Assembly: GCA_963701855.1 (NCBI GenBank) | Contig: CAVPBK010000013.1 | Location: 1-64,000, forward strand | Source of the DNA: Nitrospirota bacterium | GTDB taxonomy: Bacteria; Nitrospirota; Nitrospiria; Nitrospirales; Nitrospiraceae | Direction: 5' to 3' | DNA length: 64,000 nucleotides | Shown here: positions 28,852 through 35,000 of the stretch, piece by piece | Layout of the letters: every line of letters starts with the position of its first letter | Numbering within the stretch: the stretch's first letter is position 1 | The notes under the pieces: model-generated | Told to the model about the DNA's origin: nothing | Seen by the model: only the letters and a program-made list of their open reading frames with translations | Databases searched by the model: none | Program-made: the position numbers and the translations under genes

Positions 28852-28996
28852 CCTCCATTCTCAGATCATCCAGGTCTATCCACCGCTTCATTCTCCACCG
28901 TTCTACGTTCGCTCCCCATCTGCGGATCTGTCAAGTCCAGCGGGCTAGTGCGGTAGTGGGCTATTTTGGTTTGTCCGCCTATTTGTTTTTGCAGTT

Positions 28997-29818
28997 TTAT
29001 TTCATTCGATTATAGGGGTAATAAAGGTAGACGCCGATGTCGGATGGATTAGAGGTTCCAGGGAAATAGGCCCCAACTTCAGTAATTCGTTCTTTATCGG
29101 TGAGTACATCATGATAGGTAGCGCATCCGTGAATGAACAGTTTGGCGGTCCTGTTTCTGACCATCTGCTCTTGTGCTTCAGACATGCCGTATGTCCCACT
29201 GTGGAGTTTAGTGCCCCAAACTTTATCAGGCGGAAGGATACCTACATGAACAGTCGCCTTTGGGCATTTGTAAGGGTCAAATTTAGGAATGTTAGTGAGA
29301 TCATATGGCCCGCTTGGATTTATGAAGGAAAACTCCCAGCCAGATTCAGCCTTGAGGGCTGGAGTCTTACCGATATTTTTAAAACCAATTTCGAAAGTGA
29401 TTTGGTCTTTGTCAATACTTGTAATTCCGAAACCGTCCACTGCAATCCATGCCGCAGTGGAGGCTGCAGCAGCATCAGCAGAGAGTTTAGTAGCCTCGGT
29501 GGTCTGTTTGATCTCACTCCAAATATACCAATTAATCATTACAGTAATGCCAACAAAAAAGGCGGTCGCCACTTCAAGACGGAATTTCCATTTATCTCTG
29601 GACTCTTGCCGTTTCTGATTGGCGTTGTAACTTTCTTCTATTCTGCGTGGAAAATTAACTTCGACAGTAGATGTAAGTGGTGGGTAGATATTTGGCTGGT
29701 TGCTGGGTTTTGTATTTTTCTGTACGGAGTCAGCGGTATTTTGACATGGAGCGTCTCCTTCTAATGCCATCGTTTTATTTTTGGCCTTCTTTTTTCGTCT
29801 TTTTGAATGCCTTGACAT
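28997..29818 (-). CDS. Transposon passenger: single-pass membrane protein of unknown function
   Basis: 273 aa; basic N-terminus, one TM helix, beta-rich C-terminal domain; starts 1 nt after the transposase stop. Confidence 0.7.
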   Translation of the reverse strand: MSRHSKRRKKKAKNKTMALEGDAPCQNTADSVQKNTKPSNQPNIYPPLTSTVEVNFPRRIEESYNANQKRQESRDKWKFRLEVATAFFVGITVMINWYIWSEIKQTTEATKLSADAAAASTAAWIAVDGFGITSIDKDQITFEIGFKNIGKTPALKAESGWEFSFINPSGPYDLTNIPKFDPYKCPKATVHVGILPPDKVWGTKLHSGTYGMSEAQEQMVRNRTAKLFIHGCATYHDVLTDKERITEVGAYFPGTSNPSDIGVYLYYPYNRMK

Positions 29819-29819
29819 A

Positions 29820-30634
29820 TTAAACGAGTTCGCCGAGTTCCCAAATGCGATCTGTAATGCCCGCTGCCATGGCTGGCGTCATACGAAGTGACCGATGAAT
29901 CAGACAGAAGTTGTAGCTCCAGAAGTAGAGCGCGACAGCAGCTTTCAGATTGGCCAACTTACGGGAGAAGGCCAAGGTGAGACGGTGAAATCTAGCAACC
30001 TTCATCCGCAAGGTCAAATTCTGCCGCTCAACATAGGACGTACAGACCTTGCTGTAATCCGGGATGCCCAACACTTCAGTAATCTCCGTTCCAGACACGC
30101 GAGGCGGGGCATAGCGGCCTGGTCCAGGATTCTGCGAGGCGTACAGCTTCGTGATTGTGGCATAGGTGGCACGATTGCCGAAGTATCTCGCAATGGCTGG
30201 ACTATATGGTCCCCACGCGTCGGTACTGACCTGGGTAGAACCTTCAATGCGTCGGCTCAGATCCTCGATGAAATGATGTGTATTGATCGAGTCCCGCTTG
30301 CCCACATGGAAGGCTGGAATGACTTTGGAGATAGGATCAAGCGCGATATATGTATACTGGTCGCCAAGCTCAGGATTGGCCTTCCGTTCCTCAGCTTTCA
30401 TCACACCGTCTTTTTTCCCAACGAACGTCCAGATTTCGTCACATTCAACAGCCTCACACCGAATGCCGCGCATGCGCTCATCCATCATTTGCTGACAGCG
30501 CGTTCCCACTTCCACCAACAGCTTCATGATGGTTTTCTTATGTACGCCGGTCATGCGGACTATAGAACGGATCGAACAGCCCTCAGTGAGAGCGGAGATA
30601 ACAGCCAACTTTTTTCTGCTTTCAGCACATTCAT
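29820..30634 (-). CDS. IS1-family DDE transposase (apparent frameshift in an A6 run near 30610-30615)
   Basis: HTH EGCSIRSIVRMTGV; ECDEIWTFVGKK, STDAW, TSYVERQNLTLR, TPAMAAG. SD AAGGAGG precedes ATG 30634, which is out of frame with the body by one base. Confidence 0.88.
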
Positions 30635-30644
30635 GGGACCTCCT

Positions 30645-30673
30645 TTGATTGGAGATCCCGGAAGGTGTATACT
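30645..30673 (+). promoter_or_regulatory. Sigma-70 promoter firing antisense to the transposase leader
   Basis: TTGATT-17 nt-TATACT. Confidence 0.65.
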
Positions 30674-30679
30674 TTGAAT

Positions 30680-30765
30680 CGCCTTCATGGGTGCGATCCG
30701 GTTCGACCTTCGCGGGACCTACCGGGTTGCGGTTGCTCGGTGCTAGTAACACCGGGCAACCATTC
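30680..30765 (+). ncRNA. Predicted ~85-nt cis-antisense RNA
   Basis: Lies between the antisense promoter and a 12-bp hairpin GGTTGCTCGGTG/CACCGGGCAACC (30731-30761) whose G-U pair forms only on the plus strand. Confidence 0.5.
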
Positions 30766-30777
30766 CTACTTACATGA

Positions 30778-30853
30778 TGGTGGCGGGGGCCAGTCTCGAA
30801 CTGGCGACAGCCGGGTTAGTAATCCGGCGTTCTATCCCCTGAACTACCCCGCC
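30778..30853 (-). tRNA. Atypical tRNA / tRNA-like gene, anticodon ACT, short variable arm, encoded CCA
   Basis: 76-nt cloverleaf: GGCGGGG TA GTTC AGGGGATA GAAC G CCGGA TTACTAA CCCGG CTGTC GCCAG TTCGAGA CTGGC CCCCGCC A CCA. Confidence 0.85.
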
Positions 30854-30901
30854 ATTCATCTTGCTCTTCTCCATTGTTTCAAATCCATCCTACTATTGTT
30901 T

Positions 30902-30955
30902 AAAATAATATATATAATTGTTGACAATAAGTCAACTGTTTGTTATATATATTTT
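30902..30955. promoter_or_regulatory. Overlapping divergent sigma-70 promoters within an AT-rich quasi-palindrome
   Basis: Plus strand TTGACA(30921)-17-TATATA; minus strand TTGACT(30935)-17-TATATT; IR GTTGAC-N5-GTCAAC flanked by ATATATATAA/TTATATATAT. Confidence 0.7.
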
Positions 30956-30985
30956 AACTATTGTTATAAAAAGGATGGTGCAACC

Positions 30986-32113
30986 ATGAAAAAGAGAGAA
31001 AAAAGCGAAAACATTCAGCACTTCATAGTCGATAATCTCATGATTAATAAGGCCAATGTATCTGAGGCGTCGTCATTTCAGATGTCTCATCTTGCTCGCC
31101 TAACGGCAGATCATTTTCAAATTTCACGGGCGGCGGTCGCAAGACACATTGCCCTATTAGTGAAAAGAAATATTCTTAGTGCCTCTGGTAACACGAAGGC
31201 ACGAATGTATGCGCTAGTTCCTTCAGTTGACGAAAGATTCAGTCTTTCAACAGTAGGGCTACAGGAGGATGTGGTTTGGCGTGAAAGAATCAGCCCTTTG
31301 TTCTCCAATGATACCCCTGAGAACATTCTCACAATCTGTAATTATGGTTTTACTGAGATGCTGAATAACGCAATTGACCATTCAGAGTCTGACACCGTGC
31401 ATATCACTGTTACGGTCGATGCAGCACAAATTTTTATTTGGATTCGTGACTTCGGAATAGGAGTTTTTAAAAAGCTAATGCGAGATCTTCATTTACATGA
31501 TGCGCGTCACGCTCTGTTAGAGCTAAGCAAGGGCAAGCTAACCACTGCTGCGGGTGGGCATACCGGACAAGGGATATTTTTTACTTCGCGCATATTTGAT
31601 GAATATATGTTTTGGGCCAATGGGTTCTCATTTTGTCGCTTTGGCAAGGATGATGATTGGTTATTTGAGCCCAAAGATCCCCAAAAGGATCCTGACGTAG
31701 GCACGCTAGTTATGATGAGAATTTCTCTAAGGGCCACACAAACAGCGGGCGAAATTATGAGCCAATATTCATCAGAATTGCATGATTATGGATTTACGAA
31801 AACCCATGTTCCATTGGTGTTGGCCAAATATGAGGGAGAACAGTTGGTTTCTCGGTCACAAGCAAAGCGATTGATGTTACGCGTGGATCAGTTCAAGGAA
31901 GTCATGTTGGATTTTACGGGTATTACTACTATTGGGCAGGCGTTCGCGGATCAAATATTTAGGGTGTTTCAAGGCGAGCATCCAAAACTATTAATCGTTC
32001 CGATTAATGAGAATGAGGAAGTAAAGAAAATGATTACTCGGGCGAAGGGAGAGACGGTTGTAGAGCTTACCCCTTCCCTTTTTGATGCCATTAAGGATGA
32101 TCCAACCACATGA
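30986..32113 (+). CDS. wHTH + HATPase (anti-sigma-like) + STAS-like (DUF4325) fusion protein
   Basis: ISRAAVARHIALLV (HTH); TEMLNNAIDHS, DFGIG, GQGIFF (N/G1/G2 boxes); VSRSQAKRL..LDFTGITTIGQAFADQIF. Confidence 0.85.
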   Translation: MKKREKSENIQHFIVDNLMINKANVSEASSFQMSHLARLTADHFQISRAAVARHIALLVKRNILSASGNTKARMYALVPSVDERFSLSTVGLQEDVVWRERISPLFSNDTPENILTICNYGFTEMLNNAIDHSESDTVHITVTVDAAQIFIWIRDFGIGVFKKLMRDLHLHDARHALLELSKGKLTTAAGGHTGQGIFFTSRIFDEYMFWANGFSFCRFGKDDDWLFEPKDPQKDPDVGTLVMMRISLRATQTAGEIMSQYSSELHDYGFTKTHVPLVLAKYEGEQLVSRSQAKRLMLRVDQFKEVMLDFTGITTIGQAFADQIFRVFQGEHPKLLIVPINENEEVKKMITRAKGETVVELTPSLFDAIKDDPTT

Positions 32114-32243
32114 GTGATTTTCAAAATAGCCCACTACCGTCTAGAGCCCGCTTCCTTGCAATCCTGTCACAGGCTCGCTACCATATTTCGTGTAGATTCT
32201 GGTCTAATACCACGGTACTTCACCACAACAAGGCTGGTTTCCT

Positions 32244-33098: not shown

Positions 33099-35000
33099 GT
33101 GAAGATGAAATATCCGACCCCTCCCGCTTTTCGCGCGAGTCTCGCGCAAATAACGCGATGGGCCACCCTCGTGTGTCTCCTCATTTCAATAGGCGGGCTG
33201 TGGGGATGCGAGAAACTAACCTCGGCGCTTCACCGAACCTCCTTACCAGACATGGGCCCGCGTCTAGCCAACTCCGTCAAGCTAACTTTCGACCCCTCCT
33301 TCACCAATCTCAAGATGCAATACGTAGATGGATGCAGTAGCCCTCGCGATCTCAACGTGGGGGAAGAAGTCGAATCGATTATGATTGACGCGGCTTCCCA
33401 AAACTTTACGGCCGTGACCGTCATCGGTGGAATCCCGGCACAAATCCAGCCTGACACGGAGATCGTAGTCACGCTCCAACGCTCAGGCCTCAAACTTTGG
33501 GCTGATAATGTCTACGACAGGGTGCCTGCGGACATGACCCTTGAGGCGCGGGTAACCCTGAAGGATGCCAGGGGGAAAGAGCTTGGCCAGCAGACCATTT
33601 CCATCACACACAACCAACGCCTTATTCTAGAACCGGCCATACGCCGATGCGATTATGGCAATATAGGGGAGTTCGTACATGACGCCGGGATTGCACTCAC
33701 AACGCAATTCATGCGCACCGTTCGAACCCAGTTGGCAGCAACGGGCGGAACCGCTCCTGCACCAGTGGCAGCATCGCCTGTGAAACCAGTCCCGCCGACA
33801 CCGACCATACTATCCCAAGGCGCTCCATCGACACTTTTTTTTAAGGCCACTCTGCTGGACGAGAACAGCAATTTGCTCTTTGAAGGAGGCGAGCACATTC
33901 GGGTACGCATCGACCTCGTAAACGAAGGAGAGCAGGAACTACAGGGTGTCACAGCCGCCTTGACGGGAACCGCCTCGCTGCTCGCCCAGTTTCCTGCCAG
34001 CTCGCTGGCGATCGGACGACTGCAACCGGGCCAATCCCGCTCGATCGAATTTGTGGCGACGGTACCGCCGTCAATGCAACAGCAGAAGGCCGAAATCCAC
34101 GTGGCAGTCTCTGATTCTGGAACCCATGCTCAGCCGCTGACTCAAACTCTGGCCCTGACGATCCAACCAACCGGCATCAAGGCCGATGACGTAGATCACA
34201 TCCCTCCTGTGCTCACCGGATTTCGGCAGCCCCATACCTATTTGATCTCAATTGGGATCGGATCCTACCGAAACCGGCAAGTCCTATCCCGCAAGTTCGC
34301 TTCCTTGGATGCCCAGGTGGTCTCGAACTATTTTCAGGCCCTCGGTGGCTTACCGGCTTCCAATATTCTTCTACTGCAAAACTGGAAAGCCTTACGCTCT
34401 GATATTGACGAAGCGCTGCTGGATTGGCTGCCACCTTATATGAATAAGGACGCGGTTGTTATTGTCTATTTCGCCGGTCTAGCTTCGGTCTCTTCGACGG
34501 GAGAGACGTTCCTGATACCGTACGATGGAATCGCCACGACCGCCTCAAAGGCCTACTCGATCAAAGATTTGGAGGCAGCGCTGGCTCGATTGAAAGCGAA
34601 ACAGACAGTATTTCTGTTCGATGGCATCGTGTCTCGCATGGAACCGGATAACCGAACTAAGATTGCCCGGCCTCAATGGAGTCCCACGGGAAGCTCGACC
34701 ATCCATGTCATCGGGACCAGCGGCATCGGGCAAGGGTTAGAGGATGACCAGCATCAGCATGGCCTATTCACCTACTATCTGCTGCGAGCACTGCGTGGTG
34801 AGGCCGACACCAACCGGGACGGCGACGTGACGCTCGGCGAAACGGTGACCTATCTCAGCCAGAAAGTGCGCTGGGCATCCAAAACCCGCATGAACCAGGA
34901 GCAACGCCCCTTTGCTGTTCCGGCGATTCTCCCAACCGATCCTTCCGCTGCCTTGATTTTGACCAAGCAAGCTGCGATCCAGGGCACCGAAGCTCACTAA
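33099..35000 (+). CDS. Lipoprotein with Ig-like domain and C-terminal caspase-like (C14) domain, catalytic dyad apparently lost
   Basis: LWGC lipobox; ISIGIGSY, YFAGLA, FDGIV, HGLFTYYLLRALRGEADTNRDG. Confidence 0.8.
   Translation: MKMKYPTPPAFRASLAQITRWATLVCLLISIGGLWGCEKLTSALHRTSLPDMGPRLANSVKLTFDPSFTNLKMQYVDGCSSPRDLNVGEEVESIMIDAASQNFTAVTVIGGIPAQIQPDTEIVVTLQRSGLKLWADNVYDRVPADMTLEARVTLKDARGKELGQQTISITHNQRLILEPAIRRCDYGNIGEFVHDAGIALTTQFMRTVRTQLAATGGTAPAPVAASPVKPVPPTPTILSQGAPSTLFFKATLLDENSNLLFEGGEHIRVRIDLVNEGEQELQGVTAALTGTASLLAQFPASSLAIGRLQPGQSRSIEFVATVPPSMQQQKAEIHVAVSDSGTHAQPLTQTLALTIQPTGIKADDVDHIPPVLTGFRQPHTYLISIGIGSYRNRQVLSRKFASLDAQVVSNYFQALGGLPASNILLLQNWKALRSDIDEALLDWLPPYMNKDAVVIVYFAGLASVSSTGETFLIPYDGIATTASKAYSIKDLEAALARLKAKQTVFLFDGIVSRMEPDNRTKIARPQWSPTGSSTIHVIGTSGIGQGLEDDQHQHGLFTYYLLRALRGEADTNRDGDVTLGETVTYLSQKVRWASKTRMNQEQRPFAVPAILPTDPSAALILTKQAAIQGTEAH

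Follow-up and report, generated by a model that had tools for sequence, protein, structure and literature searches.

A tRNA gene with a serine-type anticodon is a maintained part of the transposition module of an IS1-family cargo transposon in Nitrospirota

tRNA genes are usually viewed as host housekeeping genes or as phage cargo that corrects codon bias. Two published groups of tRNAs lie closest to the case described here. In the available part of Mukai et al. (PMC5389517), allo-tRNA(UAU) and other odd tRNAs are linked to transposable elements, and the authors suggest there that such tRNAs may not serve general translation. In the available part of PMC11415595, tRNA-ProX of Streptomyces and Kitasatospora joins the body of one amino acid to the anticodon of another, carries A34, and has lost U33 in some members. 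Here we describe a tRNA gene with the anticodon ACT (the ACT gene), which lies in an IS1-family cargo transposon of a Nitrospirota bacterium, within a 64,000-nt stretch of contig CAVPBK010000013.1 (this whole stretch is hereinafter designated the window). The gene is a fixed and selected part of the transposition module, and its identity bases and its anticodon appear to belong to different amino acids.

The ACT tRNA appears to be a new variant of the dual-identity, transposon-associated tRNAs. Compared with what the same part of PMC11415595 gives for tRNA-ProX, it shares the apparent combination of one body with another anticodon, A34, and the loss of U33 in some family members. It differs from tRNA-ProX in that it is linked to a transposase, in that its element holds no synthetase gene (only genes for a transposase and an ATPase-STAS protein, and an uncharacterised open reading frame (ORF)), and in that it is known here from sequence alone. 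Like allo-tRNA(UAU), as presented in the cited part of PMC5389517, it is an unusual tRNA beside transposon genes, but its cloverleaf is a normal 7/5 one with a 5-nt variable loop, it carries arginine rather than serine elements, and its anticodon and host phylum are different. A literature search, which left aside the supplements of PMC5389517 and PMC13092985, returned nothing on tRNAs inside IS1-type elements.

The ACT gene occupies positions 30778-30853 of the minus strand and encodes a class I cloverleaf of 76 nt, with the anticodon at 30818-30820, A20, A73 and an encoded CCA end. It is one of three tRNA genes that ARAGORN finds in the window (anticodon act), and it scores 57.1 bits against Rfam RF00005, with a gathering score of 29 and an E value of 1e-9. 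The stems have 7, 4, 5 and 5 bp, and the tRNA core bases (U8, A14, G18G19, T54-C56 and A58) are all present and are invariant in the 13 members of the family alignment described below. Specifically, the acceptor stem GGCGGGG/CCCCGCC forms seven perfect pairs, the D stem GTTC/GAAC encloses the loop AGGGGATA, the anticodon stem CCGGA/CCCGG, in which A31 faces C39, carries the loop TT-ACT-AA, the variable loop CTGTC has 5 nt, and the T arm reads GCCAG-TTCGAGA-CTGGC. A preliminary description of this DNA had listed the stems, CCA end, A73, 5-nt loop, A31-C39 mismatch and anticodon loop, and all of them are present as listed; it gave no strand, which is minus.

The anticodon is not an assembly slip, because contigs from two DNA runs of two studies (X1 and X2) span the gene with zero differences and read ACT, not CAT; one of the runs is possibly the source sample. 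RNA-library contigs X15 and X16 span the tRNA and 33-56 nt of the leader that follows it; their word shares are small, and DNA carry-over is possible. The host set, as called by ARAGORN, comprises 45 tRNA genes. Because it includes three CAT tRNAs and five long-armed tRNA-Ser genes, no host tRNA is missing that the ACT gene would replace. An origin as a host-gene remnant is ruled out by the single copy, the position inside the transposon and the lack of a full-length match in 60 relatives, in which the sole match is a 25-nt piece in genome G044. A phage or plasmid origin was likewise rejected: blastn gave partial likeness only, namely three Streptomyces phage tRNA-Arg(CCT) genes (82-83% over positions 7-58), one phage tRNA-Met (73%), one plasmid match and one E. 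coli tRNA-Asn at E 0.2, and the transposase is absent from the viral contigs searched.

The gene recurs together with its surroundings. The whole element was searched against all 371 genomes of the same taxonomic family, of which 41 matched some part of it, and the recurrent match consists of the transposase, the leader and the tRNA. ARAGORN reports a short-armed act or gct tRNA in 10 of the 29 loci returned. In locus L007 (1504-1581) the anticodon arm has an extra base, for which ARAGORN gives an 8-nt loop with the four-base anticodon gcta, and blastn adds three further partial or decayed tRNA copies. A pattern census of the same 371 genomes places a class I RCT tRNA in 11 of them, one copy each, six with ACT and five with GCT, while the reversed control pattern gives zero matches. 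Genome G122 (one of the six ACT genomes) and genome G118 (the source of locus L019) are flagged unpublished. For both the transposase and the cargo protein, those close homologues that bear a name come from Nitrospira or Nitrospiraceae assemblies, and among 401 genomes sampled from the phylum, transposases at least 60% identical occur only in G000 and G326.

In every sister element the tRNA shares its strand with the transposase and precedes the start codon by ~140 nt, and similarity between loci starts 6-7 nt 5' of the tRNA. In L007, L008 and L009 the tRNA is enclosed by the same inverted repeats, and the cargo on both sides differs between elements. Across these elements the anticodon is always RCT, that is, ACT or GCT. 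Rather than a broken host tRNA, the gene is best explained as a functioning component of the transposition module. As a rule for annotation, a short-armed 'tRNA-Ser(ACT/GCT)' beside an IS1-type transposase is no pseudogene.

More distant relatives were drawn from metagenomes, where 599 transposase relatives were confirmed and 80 kept, with 41-59% identity. The family model has strong same-strand matches upstream of the transposase in three of them, L040, L057 and L076. The tRNA family alignment has 13 members, ten from genomes and three from metagenome contigs.

The alignment defines the selection that acts on the RNA. Stem cells are in standard pairs in 96.0% of 273 cases, and pairing falls to 41-50% when the stem partners are slid by 1-3 columns. 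Double-sided changes occur in 15 of the 21 stem pairs, including all five pairs of the anticodon stem, so that all four stems are compensated. On four of five measures, all 500 shuffles fall short of the observed value; on the fifth, 3 shuffles attain it. The gene is therefore maintained rather than decaying. Invariant positions are T8, A9, G10, A14, G18, G19, A20, A21, C35, G53, T55, C56, A58, C61 and A73; T36 (in 12 of the 13 members), A37 and A38 are conserved at 90% or more. Position 34 is A in five members and G in seven, and the thirteenth (L076) has a decayed anticodon arm. With a purine at the wobble position throughout, the anticodon (ACU or GCU) matches the serine codons AGU and AGC.

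The body does not carry serine identity. Seryl-tRNA synthetase (SerRS) requires a long variable arm and G73, and the main determinant for methionyl-tRNA synthetase (MetRS) is the CAU anticodon. The ACT tRNA has a 5-nt variable loop and A73, whereas the five tRNA-Ser genes of the host are 83-92 nt long with long arms. That description had also called the body Met-like. The CAU anticodon of elongator tRNA-Met is absent here (ACT) and in the sisters (ACT or GCT), and the likeness to tRNA-Met is found overall and in the acceptor stem. Specifically, when plain identity is scored and the anticodon columns are left out, no host tRNA comes closer than the elongator tRNA-Met (0.72 to the gene and 0.68 as the family mean), and host tRNA-Arg genes reach 0.61-0.62. 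In a census of the acceptor pattern, the 79 fitting ARAGORN calls among the matches listed (80 loci in species genomes) are 49 Met(CAT), 29 Phe(GAA) and one ACT, the last in a Nitrospirae assembly; since the matches listed are mostly ordinary tRNA-Met or tRNA-Phe, this census is uninformative on distribution outside the family. At five matches in viral contigs, ARAGORN calls two Met(CAT), one Phe(GAA) and one tRNA of undetermined type, and makes no call at the fifth. The acceptor stem itself varies in distant members, with the Arg-like GCGCCTG in L014, GCTCCTG in L057 and GTCCCCG in L076.

A family covariance model, which discounts covarying stems, ranks the host genes differently. Its top host scores are 88.4 bits for Arg(TCT), 82.8 for Arg(CCT), 81.8 for Ile(GAT), 78.5 for Arg(ACG) and 77.9 for Arg(CCG), compared with 72.8 for elongator Met and 91.1 for the ACT gene itself. 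The D-loop form GG-A20-N-A21 occurs in the host genome only in the five tRNA-Arg genes. According to the available part of PMC4615739, C35 is a major arginine identity element, with G or U accepted at 36, A20 is the major element for E. coli arginyl-tRNA synthetase, and the identity elements listed there exclude position 34. Consistent with these elements, A20 is present in 13 of 13 family members while the remaining D loop varies in length and sequence, and C35 (13 of 13) is followed by T36 (12 of 13). What the gene lacks is an arginine anticodon (ACG, CCG, UCG, UCU or CCU), as A or G at 34 followed by CU belongs to Ser AGY. In the available part of PMC11415595, A34 in bacteria is almost restricted to tRNA-Arg(ACG).

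The ACT gene therefore shares with bacterial tRNA-Arg(UCU/CCU) the class I cloverleaf, the GG-A20-N-A21 D loop, C35, U36, A37 and A38; it differs in the purine at 34 (Ser AGY box), in the Met/Phe-like acceptor stem of the core group and in being carried in a transposon ahead of the transposase. In our reading, the tRNA is probably of the arginine type, its acceptor stem being Met/Phe-like and its anticodon that of serine (AGY). Of the Met-like body, the nearest host tRNA by raw identity and the Met/Phe acceptor stem stand, while the Arg-type D loop, C35-U36 and the scores of Arg(TCT) and Arg(CCT) above Met do not agree with it.

Whether the anticodon is used was addressed by a codon comparison, which covered 11 tRNA-bearing transposase genes and 74 homologues without the tRNA family. 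AGY codons as a class are neither enriched nor avoided (50/2945 in the tRNA-bearing genes versus 404/19931 in the others). One AGT codon (30225-30227, minus strand) encodes Ser137, the serine two residues before the near-invariant Asp139 in the motif Q-[VIL]-S-T-D. All 13 distinct tRNA-bearing loci have AGT here (all 12 if L019 is left out), whereas the five flanking codons (Gln, Val/Ile/Leu, Thr, Asp and Ala/Gly) vary synonymously. Of the 100 columns that are invariant and degenerate in the nine core genes, only 4 show a single codon (GAT, AGT, TAT and TTC). The 74 homologues have Thr (57), Ser (16) or Asn (1) at this position. Those 16 Ser codons comprise 12 TCN, 3 AGC and 1 AGT, and four further Ser copies from the phylum sample use AGC, AGC, AGC and TCT. 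Across the nine genes, 29 of the 41 AGY codons lie in four fixed columns, and in two of these one member has an Arg codon instead (CGT and AGA, respectively). No link was seen between A34 or G34 and the use of AGT or AGC at the four columns. The idea that the anticodon loop pairs beyond the codon with the mRNA near AGT137 was dropped after a by-eye check of the aligned codons, because the base opposite A37 is never U.

Two points favour a role for the anticodon: its stem is kept by compensation, and a matching AGT is fixed in the transposase. The preliminary description had proposed a maintained role without decoding. Maintenance agrees with the compensatory changes in the stems, but the kept anticodon stem and the fixed AGT speak against the second half of that proposal.

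The layout of the locus is compatible with a single transcript. On the minus strand, the order is the divergent cargo gene (itself on the plus strand), an AT-rich promoter region, the tRNA, a 143-nt leader, the transposase gene and a 273-aa ORF. A promoter-like site, TTGACT-17-TATATT (30907-30935, minus strand; 10/12 consensus matches), lies ~45 nt upstream of the tRNA, and no minus-strand promoter-like site was found between the tRNA and the transposase. A perfect palindrome, GTTGACTTATTGTCAAC (30920-30936), overlaps the −35 part of this site, and it could be an operator of the cargo protein with HATPase_c_2 and DUF4325 domains. Bacterial RNase P prefers U at −1. In the tRNA family, 13 of 15 sequences have T at −1 preceded by A at −2, and the other two are the truncated or decayed copies L030 and L023.

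The leader (30635-30777, minus strand) is structured. RNAalifold on 12 aligned sequences gives, besides the cloverleaf, the 12-bp hairpin H1 (30730-30762) and two more hairpins, one of which pairs GGAGG, as well as a long-range GAAGG/CCUUC helix. Compensatory changes are found in 21 of the 52 pairs of the tRNA-leader region (alignment A3; leader columns 80-238). In the window, the local hairpin at 30637-30657 covers the Shine-Dalgarno sequence GGAGG. In the lowest-energy fold, the long-range helix extends over the 5' strand of this last hairpin and GGAGG is freed, whereas in the centroid fold GGAGG is paired; the single-sequence z-score is −3.5. The 7-nt loop of the 12-bp hairpin resembles an anticodon loop. 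An Rfam scan of 30560-31000 gives no family besides tRNA at E<=0.5 and no leader family at E<=10.

Our preferred reading, held tentatively, is that the tRNA is cut from the transposase transcript and then serves as the private partner of the fixed AGU codon. The promoter ~45 nt upstream would give one transcript of tRNA, leader and transposase. RNase P, guided by U at −1, G1-C72 and the ACCA end, together with 3' trimming would free the tRNA, and the remaining leader could hide or expose the ribosome-binding site. The freed tRNA would be arginylated by the host synthetase, which would ignore position 34; as the arginine identity elements listed in the available part of PMC4615739 exclude that position, a dedicated synthetase would be unneeded. 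The Arg-tRNA would then compete with host tRNA-Ser at the fixed AGU of its own message. The part of the product with Arg beside the active site would be dead and possibly inhibitory. The outcome would be a built-in brake on transposition, the part played in classical IS1 by the InsA/InsAB' ratio, which is under frameshift control. That the element would in this way encode a dual-identity tRNA that recodes one AGU, with the ratio of this tRNA to tRNA-Ser setting the ratio of active to dead transposase, as programmed mistranslation acting as a copy-number brake, is a more doubtful proposal than the partnership itself. If decoding is true, this would be the simplest natural route of Ser-to-Arg recoding and a new mode of self-regulation for a mobile element.

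Several observations weigh against a private decoding partnership. In the anticodon loop, L010 and L057 have C32-C33 and L009 has T37; the window copy has only a 4-bp anticodon stem (A31-C39); and L076 retains the tRNA body with a decayed anticodon arm. Such deviations of loop and stem look like relaxed decoding constraints. The constant purine at 34 may reflect mutational bias, because the changes there are all transitions. In the transposases, AGY codons interchange with TCN and align to S, T or A, so AGY is read as serine and general recoding does not occur; recoding of AGY as Arg throughout the transposase is ruled out, since no AGY column aligns to a conserved Arg. The signal at Ser137 is modest: 3 of 36 two-fold invariant columns also use a single codon, which puts the chance level at ~8%. 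The core tRNA-bearing genes form one clade in a FastTree phylogeny of 85 transposases, with L057 and L076 elsewhere, and all counts were taken from representative genomes and from the 13 tRNA sequences, whose elements are related and not independent. The host uses AGT at 6.8 per 1000 codons (11% of Ser codons), which is not rare, so an efficient Arg-inserting reader of AGU would harm the whole proteome. Co-transcription, processing by RNase P and at the 3' end, arginylation and decoding are all steps that we infer from the letters.

A further point against that reading comes from other IS1-type relatives, 42-50% identical, which have an anticodon-less tRNA-like minihelix upstream of the transposase. 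The minihelix combines a T arm and a CCA-like end with an acceptor stem that contains G3:U70, and the tmRNA and mascRNA models match it below threshold. It is found in L042 (1387-1457), L046 (1368-1438), L061 (1393-1465), L057 (1067-1137), L104 (1180-1250) and L086 (482-552), and also in L044. In L042 and L046, another ~130 nt upstream of the minihelix is conserved as well. The minihelices point to a role that needs no anticodon.

Such a role is at the heart of the first alternative, which is only slightly less likely than our preferred reading, namely that the tRNA is only a site for processing and insulation. Cuts by RNase P and at the 3' end would free the transposase message from upstream transcription of cargo or host and set its 5' end at H1, and the mature RNA would have no job. 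In its favour are the minihelices at the same place in other IS1-type relatives, the kept body of L076 and the relaxed loop positions, as well as the fixed position and strand, the conserved leader, the lack of an internal promoter-like site, and T at −1 with an encoded ACCA end in intact copies. L007 and L009 have a co-directional cargo gene upstream, so that read-through from it is likely. A tRNA or tRNA-like RNA upstream of a coding region in one transcript is also known from the thrU-tufB operon of E. coli and the C4 antisense RNA of phage P1. The likeness to C4 (RF01695) is weak and lies in the acceptor-like stem; the ACT tRNA is not a C4 member because it scores 18.6 bits against a gathering score of 45 (E 0.55), and it differs from C4 in that no covarying loop-to-mRNA complementarity was found. 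RNase P does not need the anticodon arm. What processing alone does not account for is the preservation of all five anticodon-stem pairs by double changes and the conservation of C35, T36, A37, A38 and A20, and it leaves the fixed AGT codon unexplained. The suggestion in the preliminary description that the tRNA is a processing signal for the transposase mRNA suits the layout, with the gene directly upstream, on the same strand and with no promoter-like site between. If it is a processing site only, bacterial transposons would use tRNA punctuation to isolate the transposase message.

The two exclusive folds of the leader, with GGAGG free or hidden and with covariation support for both, raise the question of whether the tRNA and the leader form a sensor pair. 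The tRNA, charged or uncharged, would bind the switchable leader in a T-box-like manner and tie transposition to arginine supply or growth state. This is unlikely. The aminoacylation identity set kept in the tRNA agrees with it, but the Rfam scan described above gives no T-box match (at E<=10), no conserved UGGN is available to pair with the ACCA end, and across 12 leaders no AGY triplet follows the anticodon. A T-box was rejected on these grounds and for want of a covarying specifier codon, and neither a leader specifier triplet nor a loop-to-mRNA pairing that tracks the anticodon was found.

It is very unlikely that the tRNA serves as a decoy or spare for an anticodon nuclease or another defence that targets tRNA, or that it is a captured tRNA left as a neutral, hitchhiking relic. 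Its location on a mobile element and the presence of an uncharacterised ATPase-STAS protein in the cargo would suit a decoy. However, the cargo changes while the tRNA stays, and strong compensatory evolution rules out a neutral relic. PADLOC has no family for the two cargo proteins of the window nor for two of three sister cargo proteins; the remaining one, a 107-aa protein of L009 (2599-2922), gives a weak match to PDC-S14 (E 0.003, 14.6 bits). A reading of the cargo as a defence system was rejected for the same reason, and nothing in the analysis supports the anticodon-nuclease decoy that the preliminary description had brought up. Least likely of all is a general mistranslator, in which an Arg-charged AGY reader would cause proteome-wide Ser-to-Arg errors and stress-induced variability that benefits element or host: the arginine identity set with a Ser anticodon and the mistranslating dual-identity tRNAs known in Streptomyces (available part of PMC11415595) would allow it, but its cost would be high because AGT and AGC make up ~2% of host codons, the tRNA goes with the transposase rather than with the variable cargo, and only 11 of 371 genomes have it, each with one copy.

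The transposase gene (29820-30634, minus strand, with the ATG at 30632-30634) is assigned to the IS1 family by a match to Pfam DDE_Tnp_IS1 (PF03400; 29.5 bits versus a cut-off of 24.1). Intact homologues have 271-273 aa in a single frame and start with MNVLKAEKKLAVIS. All 85 relatives keep D66 and E203, and 84 of them keep D139; these three residues probably form the catalytic triad. In the window copy, one nucleotide is missing from an A run (T6 on the plus strand, 30610-30615). Specifically, homologues read GAA AAG AAG where the window copy reads GAA AAA AG, one base short; the frame from the ATG stops after 24 codons, and the long ORF lies in the −1 frame. The X2 DNA contig has the same A run with no indel. 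The run A AAA AAG is like a slippery site, at which slipping by −1 would restore the consensus N-terminus exactly. Without such slippage on the A-rich run to bring back the frame, the window copy may be inactive.

The transposon as a whole spans 3192 bp (28949-32140). It has a GC content of 43-50% compared with 55.6% for the host genome (4.30 Mb in 15 contigs), in which it occurs as one copy. The terminal inverted repeats, CGGTAGTGGGCTATTTTG (18 nt, 28951-28968) and its partner at the opposite end (32122-32139), are 100% complementary. The sequence CTAG flanks the insert on the left (28945-28948) and on the right (32141-32144). The site is empty in the close relative G015, where the two flanks (95% and 97% identical) join directly as GCGG-CTAG-AGCCC. 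Thus, the insert is a 3192-bp transposon with a 4-bp target duplication, and the element is mobile. Classical IS1 makes target duplications of 8-9 bp, and IS1-family ends have the form GGnnnTG. The element resembles the IS1 family in its transposase, in inverted repeats that start GGTAGTG and are compatible with this form, and in the presence of a target duplication and an empty site. It differs in its single-ORF transposase, cargo on both sides, its own tRNA, a structured leader and the shorter duplication. The insertion point is the central CTAG of a short imperfect palindrome between two host genes (28941-28948 and 32141-32151; L252 1497-1515), and this palindrome may be a terminator-like hairpin.

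The cargo lies on either side of the tRNA and transposase genes. Downstream of the transposase, a 273-aa ORF with a lysine-rich N-terminus (28997-29818, minus strand) matches no Pfam or PADLOC family, and its homologue is likewise downstream of the transposase in L007 (2536-3357). The divergent gene (30986-32113, plus strand) encodes a 375-aa protein with a winged-helix-like N-terminal part, HATPase_c_2 and DUF4325 (STAS-like); this cargo type is also present in L006 and L008, and 7975 of 8000 scored candidates match the protein at E<=0.001. Outside the element, the host gene beside the insertion (33099-35000, plus strand) encodes a 633-aa protein with a caspase-like Peptidase_C14 domain.

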